Shown: positions 2,446-20,000 of the stretch, piece by piece | Layout: each line of letters starts with the position of its first letter | Numbering within the stretch: position 1 is the stretch's first letter | NCBI RefSeq assembly: GCF_004010195.1 | Contig: NC_057757.1 | Span: forward strand, 8,639,257 to 8,659,256 | Length of the DNA stretch: 20,000 nt | Direction of reading: 5' to 3' | Source of the DNA: Chiloscyllium plagiosum | Lineage: Eukaryota | Translations under genes and position numbers: made by a program | The notes under the pieces: model-generated | What the model saw: the letters and a program-made list of their open reading frames with translations, nothing else | What the model was told of the DNA's origin: nothing | The model's database searches: none

Positions 2446-3895
2446 TAGAATATACAACAATACAGTGCCAAAGAGGCCCTTTGGCCCTCAATGTTGTGCC
2501 GACCTGTGAGGTATTCTAAGCTCACCACACTCCCACACACACTATCCTATCATCATCCATGTGCTTATCCAAGGATTGCTTAAATTTCCCTCATGTGGCT
2601 GAGTTAACTACATTGTCAGGTAGGGCATTGCAAGTCTTTCCCTCTCTCCACGTAAACAATCTGCCTCTGACATCTGTCTTAAATCTATCTCCCTTCAATT
2701 TGCAGTTATATCCCATTGTATACGCTGATGTCATCATCCTCGGAAAAAAGGAATTTCACTGTCGCCCATATCTAATCCTCCGATCATCTTGCATGTCTCT
2801 ATCAAATCCCTTCTTAGCCTTCTTCTTTCCAATGAGAACAGACCCATGCCTCTCAGCCTTTCCTCGTAAGAGCTTCCTTCTAGACCAGGCAACTTCCTGA
2901 TAAATCCCCTCTGCACCTTCTGCAATGCTTGCACATCTTTCCTGTAATGAGGCGACCAGAACTGTACACAATATTCCAAGTGTTGCCGCACTAGCGTTTT
3001 TTATAGTTGCAGCATGACATTGCGGTTGCAGAATTCAATCCTGCTACCAATGAAACCTATTATACCATATGCCCTCTTAACAACATTATCAACTTGGGTG
3101 GCAACTTCAGAGATCTAGGTACATTGACTCTAAGGTCCCTCTTGACGTCCATACTACCAAAACATTTTCCATTGACCCATTGCCTTTCCATTGCCTTCCT
3201 ATTATTCTTCCCAAAGTGAACCACCTCGCATTGAACTCCATTTGCCACCTCTCAGCCCAATTCTGCAGTTTATCCACGTCCCCTTGCAACCTGTAACATT
3301 CTTCCACACTGTCCACGACTCCAGCCAGTTTTTAATCCAAACTGCTAAATCACCCTCCATCCCATGCCTCTGCATTTTCTCAAACAGCCTACCATGTGGA
3401 ATCTTATTAAAGGCTTTACTGAAGTCCATGTACACCACGTCAACTGCCCTACTTTCATCTACATGCTTGGTCACCTTTTCAAAAAACTCAATGACCTGCT
3501 CTTGACCAAACCATGTTGACTATCTGAAATCAAATTGTTGTGTGCTAGATGATTATAAATCTTATCTCTTTTAATCCTTTCCAAAACCTTTCATACAAAG
3601 AAGTAAGGCAAACTGGTCTATAATTACCTGGGTCATCTCTACTACCTTTATTGAACAAGGGCACAACATTTGCAATCTCCAGTTCTCTGGTATTGAACCT
3701 GTAGACAATGATGAAGCAAATATCAAAGCTCTGCTATCTCCTCCCTAGCTCCCCAGATAACTCCATCCGGCCCAGGGGACTTGTCACTCCTTGTAGAATT
3801 GATAACACCTGTTCACAACTAACCTCGATCCTTTTAGTCTAATATCTTGCATCTCATTAGTCTCTTCTACAATATTCTCCTTTTCCTGAATGGAA
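2446..3895 (-). mobile_element. CR1/HER1-type LINE fragment (RT region plus 3' tail) with an internal deletion
   Basis: Minus ORFs read AVDVVYMDFSKAFNKIPHGRL and RQHLEYCVQFWSPHYRKDV. The 3' tail lies at ~2446-2500. It interrupts the Gypsy integrase. Confidence 0.9.
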
Positions 3896-5516: not shown

Positions 5517-6048
5517 GATTAGATTCCCTACCGTATGGAAAAAGGCCATTTGGCCCAACAAGTCCATACTGACCCTCCAAAGAGTAACCACCCAGACCTA
5601 TTCCCCTACCCTATGTTGACCCCTGACCAATGCACCTAACACTATGGGCAATTTAGCATGACCAATTCACCTGACCAGCACATTTTTGGATTGTGGGAGG
5701 AAACTGGAGCACCCGGAGGGAACTCACGCAGACACAGGGAGAATGTGTAACCTCTGCACAGACAGTGACCTGCAAGAATTGCGCCTGTAAGGCAGCAGTG
5801 CTAACCACTGAGCCAGGTGAAAGTGGGGGCTGCAGATGCTGGAGATCAGAGTCCAGATTAGAGTGGTGCTGGAAAAGCACAGCAGGTGAGGCAACATCCA
5901 CAGAACAGGAAGATCGACGTTTCAGACAAAAGCCCTCCATCAGGAATTCCTCATGAAGGGCCTTTGCCCGAAACGTTGACTTTCCTGATCCTCGGGAGCT
6001 GCCTGACCGGCTGTGCTTTTTCAGCACCATTCTTACCACCGTGCTGCC
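5517..6048 (-). mobile_element. HE1-type tRNA-derived SINE (interrupted at 5816-6035)
   Basis: Reverse strand has head GGCAGCACGGTGG...CTCAGTGGTTAGCACTGCTGCC, body GGGTGCTCCAGTTTCCTCCCACAATCCAAAAATGTGC..GCTAAATTGCCCATAG, and tail GGGAATCTAATCT. Confidence 0.88.
5816..6035. mobile_element. Penelope-type palindromic element (imperfect inverted repeat 5860-6033) with degenerate hammerhead cores
   Basis: Homologous to 14048-14263. Axis GGAATTCC at 5943-5950. Minus strand has CTGATGG-A-GGGC-TTTT-GTCT-GAAAC-GTC; plus strand has CTCATGA-A-GGGC-CTTT-GCCC-GAAAC-GTT. Confidence 0.8.
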
Positions 6049-6524
6049 AAAAACAGATCAAGCAGCTTCTCTGAGTGAGGAAGCCTAGTCAACCTTTTGA
6101 GTCCTATGACCCTTCTTTAAAACTTGAAATGTTAGCTCTACTTCTCTCTCCACCAATGCTGCCAGGCCTGCTGCGTTTCTTCAGCAATTTCTATTTTTGT
6201 TTCAATTTCCCATCTCATTGCAATTTTGAAGTAAAGTCAAACAGGATTTGAAACATTAACACTGCTTCTCTCTCCACACTCCTGCTGAGTTTATCCAGCA
6301 TTATTTGTATTTAACTGCAGAGATACAGTTTTGGACTAGCAAAAGCTTCTTCATGTTTTATAAGCAAAGGTGGCGTAGTCCAACTCTCATGTTAGCGATA
6401 TATTTGTTCCATAGTCACTATTATTGTGGTTAGCTTTATATTCAATGTGTAATTAAATGAATTCATGCTCTACCACATGCTAAAGTAGACTATTAGCCTG
6501 GACTATGGGATTGTATAATGTTGC

Positions 6525-6771: not shown

Positions 6772-7950
6772 ATAGAACATAGAACAGTACAGCACAGAAC
6801 AGGCCCTTCAGCCCACGATGTTGTGCCGACCATTGATCCTCATGTATGCACCCTCAAATTTCTGTGACCATATGCATGTCCAGCAGTCTCTTAAATGTCC
6901 CCAATGACTTTGCTTCCACAACTGCTGTTGGCAATGCATTCCATGCTCTCACAACTCTCCATGTAAAGAACCCGCCTCTGACATCCCCTCTATACTTTCC
7001 TCCAACCAGCTAAAAACTATGACCCCTCGTGTTAGCCATTTCTGCCCTGGGAAATAGTCTCCGGCTATCGACTCTATCTATGCCTCTCATTATTTTGTAT
7101 ACCTCAATTAGGTCCCCTCTCGTCCTCCTTTTCTCCAATGAAAAAAGTCCAAGTTTAGTCAACCTCTCTTCATAAGGTAAGCCTTCCAGTCTAGGCATCA
7201 TCCTGGTAAACCTCCTCTGAATCCTCTCCAAAGCATCCACATCTTTCTTATAACAGGGCGACCAGAACTGGACCCAGTATTCCAAGTGTGGTCTAACGAA
7301 AGTTTTATAGAGCTGCAACAAGATCTCACGACTCTTAAACTCAGTCCCCGTTAATGACAGCCAAAACACCATATGTTTTCTTAACAACCCTGTCCACTTG
7401 GGTGGCCATTTTAAGGGATCTATGTACCTGCACCCCAAGATCCCTCTGTCCTTCCACACTGCCAAGAATCCAATCCTTAAGCCTGTACTCAGCTTTCAAA
7501 TTCGACTTTCCAAAACGCATCACCTCGCATTTATCCAGGTTGAACTCCATCTGCCACCTCTCAGCCCATCTCTGCATCTGGTCAATGTCCCGCTGCAGCC
7601 TACAACAGCCCTCTATACTGTCAACGCCACCTCCAACCTTTGTGTCATCTGCAAACTTGCTGACCCATCCTTCAATCCCCTCACCCAAGTCATTAATAAA
7701 AATTACAAACAGTAGAGACCCAAGGACAGAGCCCTGTGGAACACCACTCATCACTGACTTCCAGGCTGAATATTTTCCTTCTACTACCACTCGCTGTCTT
7801 CTGTTGGCCAGCCAATTCTGTATCCAGACAGCTAAGTTCCCCTGTATCCCATTCCTCCTGACCTTCTGAATGAGCCTACCATGGGGAACCTTATCAAATG
7901 CCTTGCTGAAGTCCATATACACTATATCCACAGCTCTACTCTCATCAACT
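6772..7950 (-). mobile_element. Young 5'-truncated CR1/HER1-type LINE (RT domain, one frameshift)
   Basis: Overlapping ORFs 7341-7931 (DFSKAFDKVPH, SGVPQGSVLG, SKFADDTK) and 7010-7465 (VRPHLEYWVQFWSP) join through a frameshift near 7350. The 3' end has a (TTCTATG)n-like tail. Confidence 0.95.
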
Positions 7951-8424
7951 TTTCTATTATATTTCCATTACCAGTCTTCAAACATTAAAGTGTCTCCATA
8001 TAATGACGATTATAATTTAGATTTTATTAAACTTAACGTGAGTCAAAAAGATTGTATCATAACCTTGCCTATTGATGCATTTACCCCCAGTGATGCAAGC
8101 TTTAGATGTTCCCAGTTCGTTTTTATATGAAGCATGAGTTTCTAAACGTTTATAAGCATTTGTATTTTTTCTAAACACAAACGTTTCTGAACCGACTGCA
8201 AGACACATAAAAGCGATATAAATCTTCAACTGATTTTTGAACTTATGGTATATTCATCCCACTGGCAGGGGGAAATAAATGTGATGACGTGTTTTCTATA
8301 AAACCCATTGGTTTGTCTCAAAGTAAGACACTTGGAAAACCAATTTCGGTGATATTTGTGAAGCTTACGGGACTACAATTCTCAAAAGAGTGGGAGTAAC
8401 ATAACTGCTTCTGCTGTGTCATAA

Positions 8425-9589: not shown

Positions 9590-9752
9590 TCATGTTTTTA
9601 GGGAAGGTAATCTTCGATCTTTACCTGTCTAGCTGACACGTGACTCCAGACACACAGCAATGTGTTTGCCTCTGAGCTAACTTTTGTGCAATTAGAAATG
9701 GATAGTCAATGCTGGCTTTGGCCAGTGATGCTCATATCCATTGAATGAGCAT
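9590..9752 (+). mobile_element. Ancient SINE 3' portion with an L2-like tail, in the GPCR intron
   Basis: TTTAGGGAAGG...GTGACTCCAGAC.CACAGCAATGTG...AATGCTGGC...GCCAGTGATGCTCATATCC..TGAATGA, recognised as a common cartilaginous-fish SINE tail. Confidence 0.55.
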
Positions 9753-9779
9753 TCGATAAAGTGTCCTTCTCTTTTACAG

Positions 9780-10681
9780 CCAACTTGATGACAATCGTGA
9801 TTCTCTCACGGGGAAATTGTGGTCTCTCTAACTGTGTGACTCGATATTTGGTGGCCATGGCAGTGGCAGATCTACTAGTCATTATCAATTATGTGATCCT
9901 GACACGAATTAAGGACTCTTATTTCCCGACTAATTTCCTGTTCATGACTCCTTTCTGTTCACTGCAATCTGCCCTGAATCATATTTCCACCGACATTTCA
10001 GTCTGGCTCACAGTTGCATTTACTTTTGATCGCTTTATTGCTATTTGTTGCCACAAACTCAAGACTAAGTATTGCACCGAAAGAACAGCAACCACCGTTA
10101 TAGGAACTGTCTGTCCAATCTTCTGTTTAAAGAACATACCATGGTATTTTGCATATGAAGCCTACAATATAACTGGCTTGATCCCATGGGGTTGTAGTAG
10201 AAAACTTGAGTATTACACTGTAGCTGCTTGGATAGCATTCAATTGGATTCACCGGTGGTTGACACCATTGATTCCAATATTTTTGATATTTCTCTTCAAC
10301 GCTTTTACTGTAGGACACATTTTGGCAGCGAGTAAAACCCGGAGGAGACTCAGAGCCAGTCGGAATGATAGGGATCAAAGTGATCCCAAGATACAGAGCA
10401 GGAGAAAGTCTGTTATCTTACTCTTTGCCATATCCAGCTACTTTGTTCTTCTCTGGGTGTCATATGTTGTTTATTTTGTGTTACTCCGCGTTACAACACA
10501 TTATTACACAACAGGATACAGTGATCCAATGTATATCGCAGACCAAACCAGCCACATGCTCCTCCTTTTGAGTTGCTGCACCAACACGTGTATTTATGTG
10601 ATGACCCAAAGTAAATTTCGAGAGCAGCTAACCAAGCTGGTGAAATATCCAGTGAAGATTATCTGTAAATCTATTAAATAA
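9780..10681 (+). CDS. GPR139/GPR142-like class A GPCR, coding exon 2 (TM1 second half to stop)
   Basis: Acceptor TCCTTCTCTTTTACAG|C at 9779/9780. Open frame includes ANL (TM1), AMAVADLL (TM2), FTFDRFIAICC (TM3), IPWYF (TM4), PLIP (TM5), LLWVSY (TM6), SCCTNTCIY (TM7) and helix 8 SKFREQL. Spliced CDS is 1002 nt, 333 aa. Confidence 0.93.
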
Positions 10682-13690: not shown

Positions 13691-14139
13691 TGTTGCCATG
13701 TGGATGTGTGCCCAATATAGTGGTGTCAATTTTCCCAGCCACCTTCATCTTCGTTTCAACCATTAGCTCCAGCACTTCCATTTCACAGGTCAAATCCACC
13801 TTCGATTTCCTCTACTTTCATTATTTTTGTAACATAAAGAAGGGGGTCATCATCTGCCTGTCCTTCCAACAGGGTTCAGTAATATGTCAAAGCAGTTATG
13901 GTTGCAAGGTGGGTCAGTGGTTAGGAATGCTTCCTGATCGCGTGAGAGACCCATGCTCTCCACGTATCTGCGTAGGTTTCCTCTGGGTGCTCTGACTGCC
14001 TCCCACAGTCTGATTCAGGTTAGGTGGATTGGTCAAGCTGAATTGCCGAGAGAAAGTGAGGGCTGCAGATGCTGGAGATCAGAGCTGAAAATGTGTTGCT
14101 GGAAAAGCGCAGCAGGTCAGGCAGCATCCAAGGAACAGG

Positions 14140-14179
14140 AGAATCGACGTTTCGGGCATAAGCCCTTCTTCAGGATTCC
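14140..14179 (-). ncRNA. Minimal type I hammerhead ribozyme (PLE-like), minus strand
   Basis: GGAAUC-CUGAAGA-A-GGGC-UUAU-GCCC-GAAA-C-GUC/GAUUCU. The core is intact, with a 4-bp stem II, a 6-bp stem I (one G-U) and a palindromic ACGU in place of stem III. Confidence 0.75.
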
Positions 14180-14212
14180 TGAAGAAGGGCTTATGCCCGA
14201 AACGTCGATTCT
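14173..14212 (+). ncRNA. Minimal type I hammerhead ribozyme (PLE-like), plus strand
   Basis: Mirror copy: core CUGAAGA 14179-14185, stem II 14187-14198, GAAA 14199-14202, GUC 14204-14206. Stem I has one U-U mismatch at the palindrome axis. Confidence 0.7.
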
Positions 14213-14477
14213 CCTGTTCCTTGGATGCTGCCTGACCTGCTGCGCTTTTCCAGCAACACATTTTCAAGCTGAATTGCCCCATAGTGTCTACCGATGTGCA
14301 GGCTGGGTGGGTTAGCTCTGTTAATTAGGGTAGAGGGATGTGACTGGGTGTGATCCTCTTTGGCGGGTCGTGTGAACTCCACAGGCTGAATGGCCTGCTC
14401 CCAAACTGCAGGGATTCTATAATCCATTCTGGATGAGAAGCAATTGAAATGCCTTTTGTACCTGGCTTGGCCAAGGG

Positions 14478-15337: not shown

Positions 15338-15845
15338 AGTCATAGGGTCATAGGTCACAGAGTGCTACAGCACGGAGCCAGGTCCTTTAGCCCTAACTGT
15401 TCTATGCCAACCAAAATGTCCATCCATTCTAACGCCATGTCCCTGCACTTGGCCTACGTCCTTATGGTCCTTTCATAAACATATATTTGTCCAAATTCCC
15501 CTTAAGTATTGTTAATGTATCCGCCTCAACCACTTCCTCTGGCAGCTCATTCCATTTGCGTACCACACGCTGTGTGAAAAAGTTGCCCCTCATGTTCCCT
15601 TTTATTCTTTCCCCTCTAACCGAAAACTGATTACCTCTAGTCTTCGATTCCCCAACCCTGGGTAAAAGACTGAGTGCGTTCACTCTGTCCATGTCTCTCA
15701 TAGTCTTATAAACCTCTATAAGTTGCCCCCTCAGTCTCCTACAGTCTAAAGAAAGAAGTCCTAGCTTATCCAACCTATCCCTATAGCTCAGACCCTTACC
15801 TCCTGGCAACAACTTTGTAAATTTCTTCTGTAAACTTTCCAGCAC
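15338..15845 (-). mobile_element. CR1/HER1 3' fragment
   Basis: ORF 15462-15845 reads GLSYRDRLDKLGLLSLDCRRLRGQLIEVYK...NFFTQRVVRKWNELP. Tail is (CTATGAC)n-like. Confidence 0.9.
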
Positions 15846-15849
15846 TTCT

Positions 15850-16300
15850 TCAACATTATTCAGGTTTCTGCATCTACCGTCCTTAAAGACAGTGTGTTTC
15901 AGATTCCTGTAAACCTCTGAGTGAAACTATTTTTTCCTGACACTAACCTCAAATGTATGGCCCCGGCCATTTCTTCCTGCACCAAGGGGAAAGATTTCTT
16001 CCAGTCTATCCTATTAATGCTCCTCATAATTTTATATATCTATATCTATATAATACATCATATAAATAAAGATATCTATTCATTTACACATGGTGACAAT
16101 ATGGATTGCACTGCCTGGGAAGTCAGTGAAGGCTGGAAACCTTCCAACTTTAAAAAAAAAATTGGTTGATTTCTTCAAATATCAGAACATTCAAGGATAT
16201 GGGGCGAATGCAGGAAATTGGGATTAGTGCACCGTCAGTGCTAGTTATGTCAGAACAGACACAATGGGCTGAAGTGTCTTTCCTGCTTTGGATGTATCAA
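15850..16300. mobile_element. Two degenerate CR1 3' fragments in opposite orientations
   Basis: A minus fragment (~15850-16035) and a plus fragment (~16080-16295) with CR1 3'-end motifs, separated by an AT-rich linker. Confidence 0.5.
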
Positions 16301-16788: not shown

Positions 16789-17228
16789 AGAGTCATGGAG
16801 ATGCACAGCAGGGAAACAGACACTTCAGTCCAAACGTGCATGCTGACCAAATATCCTAAATTAATCTAGTCCCATTTGCCAGCATATGGCCCACATTCCT
16901 CTAAATCTTCCCTATTCATATAACCATCCAGGTGCCTTTTAAATGTTGCAATTGTACCAGCCTCCATCACTTCCTCTGGCAACCCATTCCACTCACGCAC
17001 CCCTCTCTACATGAAAATGTTTCCCTTTAGGTCCCTTTTAACTCTGTCCTCTCTCACCCTACATGTATGCACTCTAGATCTGGGCTGTTCCACACCAAGG
17101 AAAATACATTGCTGATTTATTATATCCATGCTCCTCATGATTTTATAAATCTCTATGAGGTCCCTGCTTAGCCTCTGACGCTCGGAAAATAGTCCCAGTT
17201 CAATCAACCTTTCCCTGTAGCTCAAGTT
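16789..17228 (-). mobile_element. CR1/HER1 3' fragment
   Basis: LSYRERLIELGLFSERQRLSRDLIEIYKIMR, plus the CR1 tail. Confidence 0.88.
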
Positions 17229-17229
17229 A

Positions 17230-17543
17230 GTTCCACTCAAAGACAAAGGAAGGGATTCATACCTGGAGTCAGAGGAAGTGGGTGAGGTCCTTTCACTGGT
17301 GTTTGCTTAGTGGAAGGATAAGGATTCGGGATGATTAGGGTAAGTTTAGGGAGGCTACACTGACATTTGAGGATATGTTGATATTTTAGGTTACATTATA
17401 TCATGAAGGAGGAAGTATTAGGTGACAGAAAGACGTTAAGATAACTAAGCCCCTGAGGACCTGATGGTATGTATCCTGGGATACTGTAGGAGGCAGGAGA
17501 GGAAATTACTGGGGCCTTGACAGAAACCTTTGTATCATCTTTA
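17230..17543 (+). mobile_element. Degenerate CR1 ORF2 internal fragment
   Basis: Motifs resembling K.PGPDGMYP.IL.EA.EEITGALTE.F. Confidence 0.65.
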
Positions 17544-19582: not shown

Positions 19583-20000
19583 TTGTTGTGGTTCTGTTCG
19601 CCGAGCTGGAAGTTTTTGTTGCAAACATTTCGTCCCCTGGCTAGGCGACATCATCAGTGCTTGGGAGCCTCCTGTGAAGCGCTTCTTTGATGTTTCCTCC
19701 GGTGTTTATAGTGGTCTGTCCCTGCCGCTTCCGGTTGTCAGTTTCAGCTGTCCGCTGTAGTGGTTGGTATATTGGGTCCAGGTCGATGCGTTTGTTGATG
19801 GAGTTTGTGGAAGAATGCCATGCCTCTAGGAATTCCCTGGCTGTTCTCTGTCTGGCTTGCCCTATGATAGTAGTGTTGTCCCAGTCGAATTCATGTTGCT
19901 AGAGGCATGGCATTCATCCACAAACTCCATCAACAAACACATCAACCTGGACCCAATATACCAACCACTACAGCGGACAGCTGAAACTCACAACCGGAAG
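19583..20000 (-). mobile_element. Penelope-like element 3' end (GIY-YIG endonuclease C-terminus and pLTR) with an inverted duplication running off the window
   Basis: Minus frame 19898-19641 reads QHEFDWDNTTIIGQARQRTAREFLEAWHSSTNSINKRIDLDPIYQPL...PSTDDVA*. Inverted arms at 19728-19829 and 19899-20000. Confidence 0.88.
19621..19660 (-). ncRNA. Minimal hammerhead ribozyme of the Penelope element
   Basis: GCA-CUGAUGA-U-GUC.CCU-AGCC-AGG.GAC-GAAA-U-GUU/UGC. The core is intact, with a 6-bp stem II (one mismatch) and a 3-bp stem I. Confidence 0.7.

Follow-up and report, generated by a model that had tools for sequence, protein, structure and literature searches.

The palindrome at positions 14,086 to 14,266 of the window (the whole stretch analysed here, 20,000 nucleotides of Chiloscyllium plagiosum contig NC_057757.1) is, as judged from its sequence, the hammerhead-bearing end (pLTR and tail) of a Neptune-type, endonuclease-positive Penelope-like retrotransposon, inserted head-to-head. 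It is considered probable that this 216-bp Penelope-like stub arose in one integration, during which both nicked target strands would have primed reverse transcription at the 5' leader of the element's RNA, this RNA being capped and uncleaved. Neither the upstream promoter region nor a protein is retained in the insertion, which is most likely a by-product that was dead on arrival. In the numbering of the element used below, +1 is the A four bases before hammerhead position C3. The features concerned are the following:

5812 to 6033, no strand: older copy of like kind, also head-to-head, its arms 78% complementary and its centre even; both hammerhead cores decayed, with no descriptor match
13952 to 14420 (limits approximate), plus: older interspersed repeat, putatively SINE-like, split by the insertion; its flanks are contiguous elsewhere
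14033 to 14047, plus: left target-site duplication, 15 bp, identical to 14264-14278
14048 to 14084, minus (sense): Penelope 'tail', element +94 to +130, marking the putative outer RT start site; confined to a single arm in 22 of 23 head-to-head pairs; in partial tandems the element runs past it
14085 to 14175, minus (sense): tailed arm, 3' part of the pLTR or RNA leader, +3 to +93; the same sequence stands downstream of GIY-YIG in longer copies
14146 to 14173, minus: minimal type I hammerhead core, C3 at 14173 to C17 at 14146, by descriptor match; core constant and stems variable across other Penelope-like families
14174 to 14178, no strand: axis, read from the sequence as a 5-nt overlap of the arms with one unpaired base (14176) and a non-native G at -1 of each arm, both arms reaching +1; 714 exact copies of the centre
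14175 to 14266, plus (sense): tail-less arm, +1 to +92, its end is the putative inner RT start site and shares 3 nt of microhomology with the target
14179 to 14206, plus: minimal type I hammerhead core, C3 at 14179 to C17 at 14206, by descriptor match
14264 to 14278, plus: right target-site duplication, 15 bp, identical to 14033-14047

The insertion and its hammerhead motifs

Comparison of the arms (14086-14175 and 14177-14266, 90 nt each, 100% complementary, 1 nt between them) confirmed the perfect palindrome around a single base at 14176 that had been described in the original prediction, and the z-score of its fold against 200 shuffles is -24. Such perfect arms are not exceptional, given that 15 of 107 palindromes sampled in the family, a sample skewed to young copies, are free of mismatches. 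The inserted unit extends from 14048 to 14263 (216 bp) between two identical 15-bp target duplications, as would be expected of the young mobile insertion of about this length that had been proposed. A 37-nt extension is present on its left side only, and the last 3 nt of the right arm double as the first 3 nt of the right duplication. The left and right flanks were found contiguous, with an offset of 0, in 2 other loci among the 45 whose left-flank match reaches the site, and it follows that the 216-bp unit interrupts an older repeat.

A descriptor of the minimal type I hammerhead matches both strands, with C3 at 14179 on the plus and 14173 on the minus strand, and places the predicted cleavage points exactly where they had been expected, at 14206 (plus) and 14146 (minus). 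The conserved core, stem II and the palindromic positions 15-16 of the Penelope-type minimal hammerhead are all present. The specificity of the descriptor can be estimated from 339 matches in 1.04 Mb of family-selected loci against 2 in the reversed control. The check with Rfam hammerhead models that had been suggested gave no score above the gathering threshold on the palindrome, though the minimal type I descriptor matches it. The microRNA matches in Rfam are sub-threshold and reflect the hairpin alone.

A stem I formed across the axis had been claimed for the minus strand. The 6-bp stem does exist, but it is a product of the junction, and in the native element the context is weaker: 3 pairs among the first 4 positions and a U-U mismatch, where 4-5 bp are usual for the minimal type I hammerhead. 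The extra stem I pairs at the axis arise by accident of the junction. In other Penelope-like families present in the loci stems I-III differ, and the core, the pairing and the palindromy of stem III are kept (stem pairs were compared by position; MAFFT left the stems unaligned), but within the palindrome's own family no compensatory stem changes were seen. On this comparison the hammerhead core is judged to be real by descent. In dispersed copies the core and its neighbouring bases gave 3/710 and 26/2556 respectively (p=0.18), a comparison of low power in which selection was not detected.

On both strands it is the antisense arm that is transcribed first. The predicted hairpin reaches -185.1 kcal/mol as compared to -164.6 kcal/mol with stem II enforced, and the suggestion that a read-through transcript would mask the ribozyme is thereby upheld, the hairpin having an advantage of 20.5 kcal/mol over every fold in which stem II is retained. 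Both motifs are predicted to be locked away in it on read-through from either side. Since each strand carries one core, no tandem dimer can form in cis, and ribozyme activity at 14146-14206 is, according to these models, unlikely. An ATG in loop II opens a hydrophobic frame of 26 codons at 14193-14273 (plus), with the same stretch on the minus strand; in the native sequence this frame stops where the tail starts, and the true ORF start of the element was not found.

Several other features were recorded in the window. The older palindrome at 5812-6033 is inserted at the end of a SINE-like repeat, and at 6070-6200 decayed pieces of another related family carry hammerhead-like remnants on opposite strands, apparently head-to-head when inspected by eye. 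The 3' end of a second, different Penelope-like element occupies 19600-20000, with a hammerhead-like motif on the minus strand at about 19620-19657; it is folded head-to-head as well (arms 19728-19832 and 19896-20000) and ends at an assembly gap. About 3.4 kb from the palindrome an uninterrupted frame of 310 aa (9749-10681, plus) matches the rhodopsin-family receptor with seven transmembrane helices (Pfam 7tm_1, E 5.5e-19). Decayed LINE-like RT fragments are found in related direct repeats at 2446-3519, 6773-7967, 15462-15926 and 17007-17306.

The family and its parent element

The multicopy family that had been suspected is a large one. A 37-mer across the core has 26,696 exact occurrences in the 3.56-Gb genome (control 0), a 26-mer from the arm has 86,254, and close back-to-back cores, no more than 13 nt apart, are present at 6,397 sites genome-wide. 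Many different centres were noticed in the best 30 loci (27 distinct sites). When the first 50 of the 6,397 close pairs were counted by hand, 10 had the centre of the 14174-14178 palindrome, 5 and 3 had two other recurrent centres, and the remaining 32 had other forms, often with a short filler. The exact 35-nt centre found at 14176 occurs in 714 copies, and two other centres with equal flanks occur in 281 and 165. In the first 30 of the 714 same-centre copies the tail is on the left in 12, on the right in 17 and absent in 1 (12:17, p=0.46); several subfamilies are represented among these copies and the tail-less end also differs. Because the centre, tail side and subfamily vary between copies, each palindrome would have been built at insertion; a master copy would fix the tail side and the subfamily, and the recurrent centre is thus read as a hot spot reached many times. 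The fixed ends, axis and polarity expected of a self-propagating palindromic element were not found. Neither were the head-to-tail units, each with a hammerhead, that define non-LTR retrozymes, as the locus is head-to-head and contains no tandem.

In longer copies a pyrimidine-rich stretch and a GIY-YIG coding region lie upstream of the arm. The GIY-YIG match (Pfam E 1.7e-4, 22.3 bits) falls 0.3 bit below the cut-off of 22.6, and the RT match in related loci (RVT_1, E 4.2e-10) is above its cut-off. At one locus (L221) RT, nuclease, pLTR, hammerhead and tail follow each other in this order without gaps, but with frameshifts, and the order RT-nuclease-pLTR was seen also in L230. A CX4CxxC linker ahead of GIY-YIG was read directly in L071; a CX2-5CxxC linker between RT and endonuclease marks Neptune and Nematis in the available text of PMC8557442. 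No intact full-length ORF was present in the 21 loci examined, many of them with assembly gaps, and the longest stop-free, gap-free RT-bearing frames in these loci are below 400 aa. Of the two groups, Neptune is favoured as the parent by what we take to be its vertebrate range. The element continues beyond the tail, and from this point partial tandems return to the arm; the pLTR deduced from these tandems, the inverted pairs and the 37-nt tail are all features of Penelope-like elements.

Short head-to-tail tandems were observed at L253 (1300-2400), L255, L258, L244 and L242, where the sequence beyond the tail rejoins the arm at or near +1. They are retrozyme-like and show the otherwise missing 5' region of the element. 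The genome also contains at least five further repeat families that bear hammerheads, with different stems (L139, L237, L031, L044, L012, L094).

Arm ends and a proposed route of integration

Arm ends were collected within the first 3 Mb of contig C1, where a 3' anchor picked out 109 arms that represent young, exact-match copies; after 8 arms abutting gaps had been dropped, 101 were left for counting of the 5' ends. These ends fall at -2 to +4 in 41 arms, at -40 to -3 in 3, further upstream in 21 and downstream of +4 in 36. There is no peak at the ribozyme cleavage site, +33, where 1 of the 101 arms starts (5 of 101 at +30 to +36), and for this reason ribozyme-cleaved RNA was rejected as the main template route. 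An origin of the +1 boundary from a splice junction was likewise rejected, since there is no AG before +1 and ends do not accumulate at the AG that lies about 21 nt upstream (3/101 at -40 to -3).

In a hand count of the first 100 of 8,822 sites at which the base before +1 is not the native C, this base was G 63 times, A 22 times and T 15 times. Preceding bases were also compared in 90 loci drawn from these, with 92 arms, in which two palindromes are counted on both strands and two loci are near-duplicates. When 22 direct inverted joins are left out, G stands at -1 in 42/70 (27% expected, p=1e-8). Solo copies have it in 20/37, although in only 3/13 of the solo copies for which no duplication was found, and where a single base separates the duplication from +1 this base is G in 4/5. 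Control ends elsewhere are preceded by G in 15/49 as compared to 8/11 at +1 in the same sample (p=0.013). An untemplated G at the 5' junction of full-length L1 and SVA copies is attributed to copying of the RNA cap in the accessible part of PMC3287187. The sharp 5' boundary and the excess of untemplated G lead us to take the template for an uncleaved RNA whose capped 5' end is +1. Cap-independent terminal addition could also be the source of the G. The context of +1 resembles, in our assumption, the initiator consensus, and a T/A-rich box lies about 32 nt upstream, its position being kept in three older copies. A putative transcription start can be placed at +1 from the insertion ends, and in the D. 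virilis Penelope an internal promoter is located in the corresponding region, according to the consulted excerpt of PMC2377424.

The 3' ends of the 109 arms are bimodal, with 62 at +89 to +101 and 47 at +124 to +131. Exactly one tail is present in 22 of 23 head-to-head pairs, in the remaining pair the tail carries a deletion, and none of the 23 is joined tail to tail. Target duplications were found in 62 of 79 sampled palindromes, 15 bp being both the median and the commonest length. The Penelope-like protein of the anole, in the part of PMC11167929 that was available, cuts and extends both strands in vitro, starts reverse transcription at two internal sites which bound the tail, and uses uncleaved RNA, ribozyme cleavage not being needed.

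At the subfamily site with the most variation the two arms match in 110 palindromes out of 116, as compared to a shuffled mean of 57 and maximum of 73, in a set imperfectly de-duplicated and with at least one site counted twice. This agreement indicates one RNA or one source for both arms in most cases, and variants due to CpG decay are common to both arms in only 2 of 13. At four loci (L277, L326, L345, L346) the arms differ at two or more subfamily sites, which means that a single RNA is not always enough. Short, locally templated fillers were seen at the 5' joints of L160, L208, L211, L193, L195, L213 and others; presumably they resemble the products of polymerase theta end joining.

Among the records listed as containing the sequence, none is registered as RNA. 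Raw reads were sought in two runs, of which the second (X20) gave none. In X19, a poly(A) single-cell library, 2,120 reads fall on a natural pLTR copy, on both strands, and 93% of them run into unlike sequence. The largest pile of loose 5' ends listed in this run is the +1 boundary itself (108 reads), and head-to-head joints of the family are crossed by 16 reads with 14 starts. No position is listed in this poly(A) single-cell run at which many molecules begin or end. The run shows that the family is represented on both strands and says nothing about the 14048-14263 locus itself.

The proposed integration would proceed as follows. Pol II would transcribe the element from +1, four bases ahead of the ribozyme core, and the RT-endonuclease would nick both target strands about 15 bp apart. 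Priming by one strand would then take place near +94 and by the other near +131, and these two internal start sites would set the limits of the tail. Both cDNAs would run off the 5' end of the RNA, often with a C added opposite the cap, and the two cDNA ends would be joined by end joining of the microhomology type. In the 14176 copy two cap-extended ends may have annealed over 5 nt with one mismatch, which would account for the single unpaired base at the centre. If there were no extra base, the 14176-type centre would represent a 1-nt microhomology and would be expected to occur less often than the 2-nt centre, but its copies are 2.5 times as numerous (714 as compared to 281).

The same Penelope by-product might have gained its second arm by fold-back, either through snap-back of the cDNA at the RNA end or through self-priming of antisense RNA, which is the reading published for rotifer elements in the accessible portion of PMC3846280. 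Arm identity, including the private variants that stand on both arms of L115 and L124, would be explained in this way, and snap-back of a cap-extended end would yield exactly the 14176 centre, so that it is disfavoured by tail polarity alone. A tailed cDNA folding back predicts, however, a fixed tail side for an asymmetric centre, where 12:17 was observed, and a tail-less one cannot create the tail that 22 of 23 pairs possess. Asymmetry is, in addition, seen in many centres, where either arm may show filler or large deletions. Fold-back is for these reasons regarded as unlikely.

It had originally been suggested that the palindrome may be a non-autonomous, ribozyme-bearing family that presents a ribozyme whichever strand is transcribed; on this view it would be copied whole from masters, with a fixed axis and a working ribozyme on both strands. 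The 714 copies with an identical 35-nt centre, the head-to-head joints present in RNA reads (16 reads, 14 starts), the improvement of stem I by the junction and the description of retrozymes as short non-autonomous Penelope-like derivatives (bioRxiv 10.64898/2026.07.22.740005, in the text available) all speak in its favour. Nevertheless the axis is not fixed, and copies with one and the same centre are unlike in their tail side, their subfamily and their tail-less end, the random tail side largely refuting the idea. Old copies have drifted arms and decayed cores (5812-6033), conservation of the core does not significantly exceed that of neighbouring bases (p=0.18, low power), the hairpin masks both cores, and retrozymes are head-to-tail tandems, unlike this head-to-head locus; the suggestion is held to be very improbable. 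An artefact of assembly or library fold-back could be suspected from the many assembly gaps which adjoin these elements, but it is scarcely credible in view of the exact 15-bp target duplication, the continuity of the host repeat elsewhere, the one-sided tail, the 6,397 similar sites, the diverged old palindromes and the presence of head-to-head joints of the family in raw reads.

Known systems and meaning for Penelope-like elements

In the published layout of Penelope-like elements (PMC3846280; PMC8557442; PMC8969392, each available in part) a truncated copy lies alongside in inverted orientation, one end carries a tail of 30-40 bp and the junction is palindromic. Minimal hammerheads in their pLTRs have been published as well (available part of PMC4209133). 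The inverted pLTR and tail insertions of Arkhipova et al. 2013 (PMC3846280) and Craig et al. 2021 (PMC8557442) share with the present one, in the text consulted, a 5'-truncated copy beside an inverted copy, a target duplication and the pLTR hammerhead. The shark copies differ in that both are cut to the first ~95 and ~131 nt and exist in thousands, and in that the duplications are 14-15 bp long as compared to 8-10 bp in the rotifer copies. The sharp 5' boundary and the untemplated G seen here are absent from the available portions of these two accounts.

The metazoan Penelope-like hammerheads described by Cervera and de la Pena 2014 (PMC4209133) have, in the accessible text, a like core with an extra base between 9 and 10.1, a G10.1-C11.1 pair, a palindromic loop-less stem III, a short stem I and thousands of solo motifs, as here. 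Dual motifs on opposite strands are described there from Schistosoma, 100-700 bp apart. The palindrome differs from that published material by its 4-bp stem II and by two motifs that are fully complementary and 5 nt apart, which leaves no room for a same-strand dimer in cis. The animal non-LTR retrozymes (bioRxiv 10.64898/2026.07.22.740005) are, in the part available, non-coding, with a type I hammerhead and derived from Penelope-like pLTRs, as here; they are head-to-tail tandems with ribozymes able to dimerise, whereas the present copy is a single head-to-head insertion, apparently not self-copying.

Poseidon PAc of the green anole (Frangieh et al. 2024, PMC11167929) agrees with the present proposal in its two RT starts bounding the tail, in cutting and extension of both strands and in the dispensable cleavage, as far as the available text goes. 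The shark parent has a Neptune/Nematis-type cysteine linker, unlike PAc, and its loop II ATG opens only 26 codons. In the portion of the PAc account consulted head-to-head products are not derived and no mapped transcription start is given. Among titles and abstract openings within mostly non-subscription literature, no account of Penelope inversions based on the cap or on two-strand priming was found. In the twin priming of L1 the second target strand primes internally and an inversion results, the two cDNAs covering mostly different parts of the RNA. Here, unlike in L1, both cDNAs would cover the same leader and thus give a true palindrome. It can be said that the head-to-head Penelope-like layout and the pLTR hammerheads were known already, and that what is added here is the analysis of the cap boundary and of the single tail, which would explain the position of the axis.

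The 14048-14263 locus is an ordinary one, belonging to a set of 6,397 or more close back-to-back pairs, and its interest lies in the family, which bears on two unsettled points in the biology of Penelope-like elements, namely the formation of inverted pLTRs and the purpose of the hammerhead. In a wider sense, to which we give an even chance, the stubs may record the integration cycle itself: a capped Pol II RNA with an uncleaved hammerhead, a dimeric RT-endonuclease priming both strands at the two tail ends of one RNA, and an axis made of the joined cap-extended cDNA ends. If this is true, inverted pLTRs would be explained with no need of antisense self-priming, and the ribozyme would not define the end of the template in vivo. 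The rules are countable and suitable for testing in vitro: one tail per palindrome, random tail side, a single-base 5' boundary, an untemplated G and no peak at the cleavage site. The genome of the shark carries, moreover, thousands of potential 90-bp RNA hairpins.
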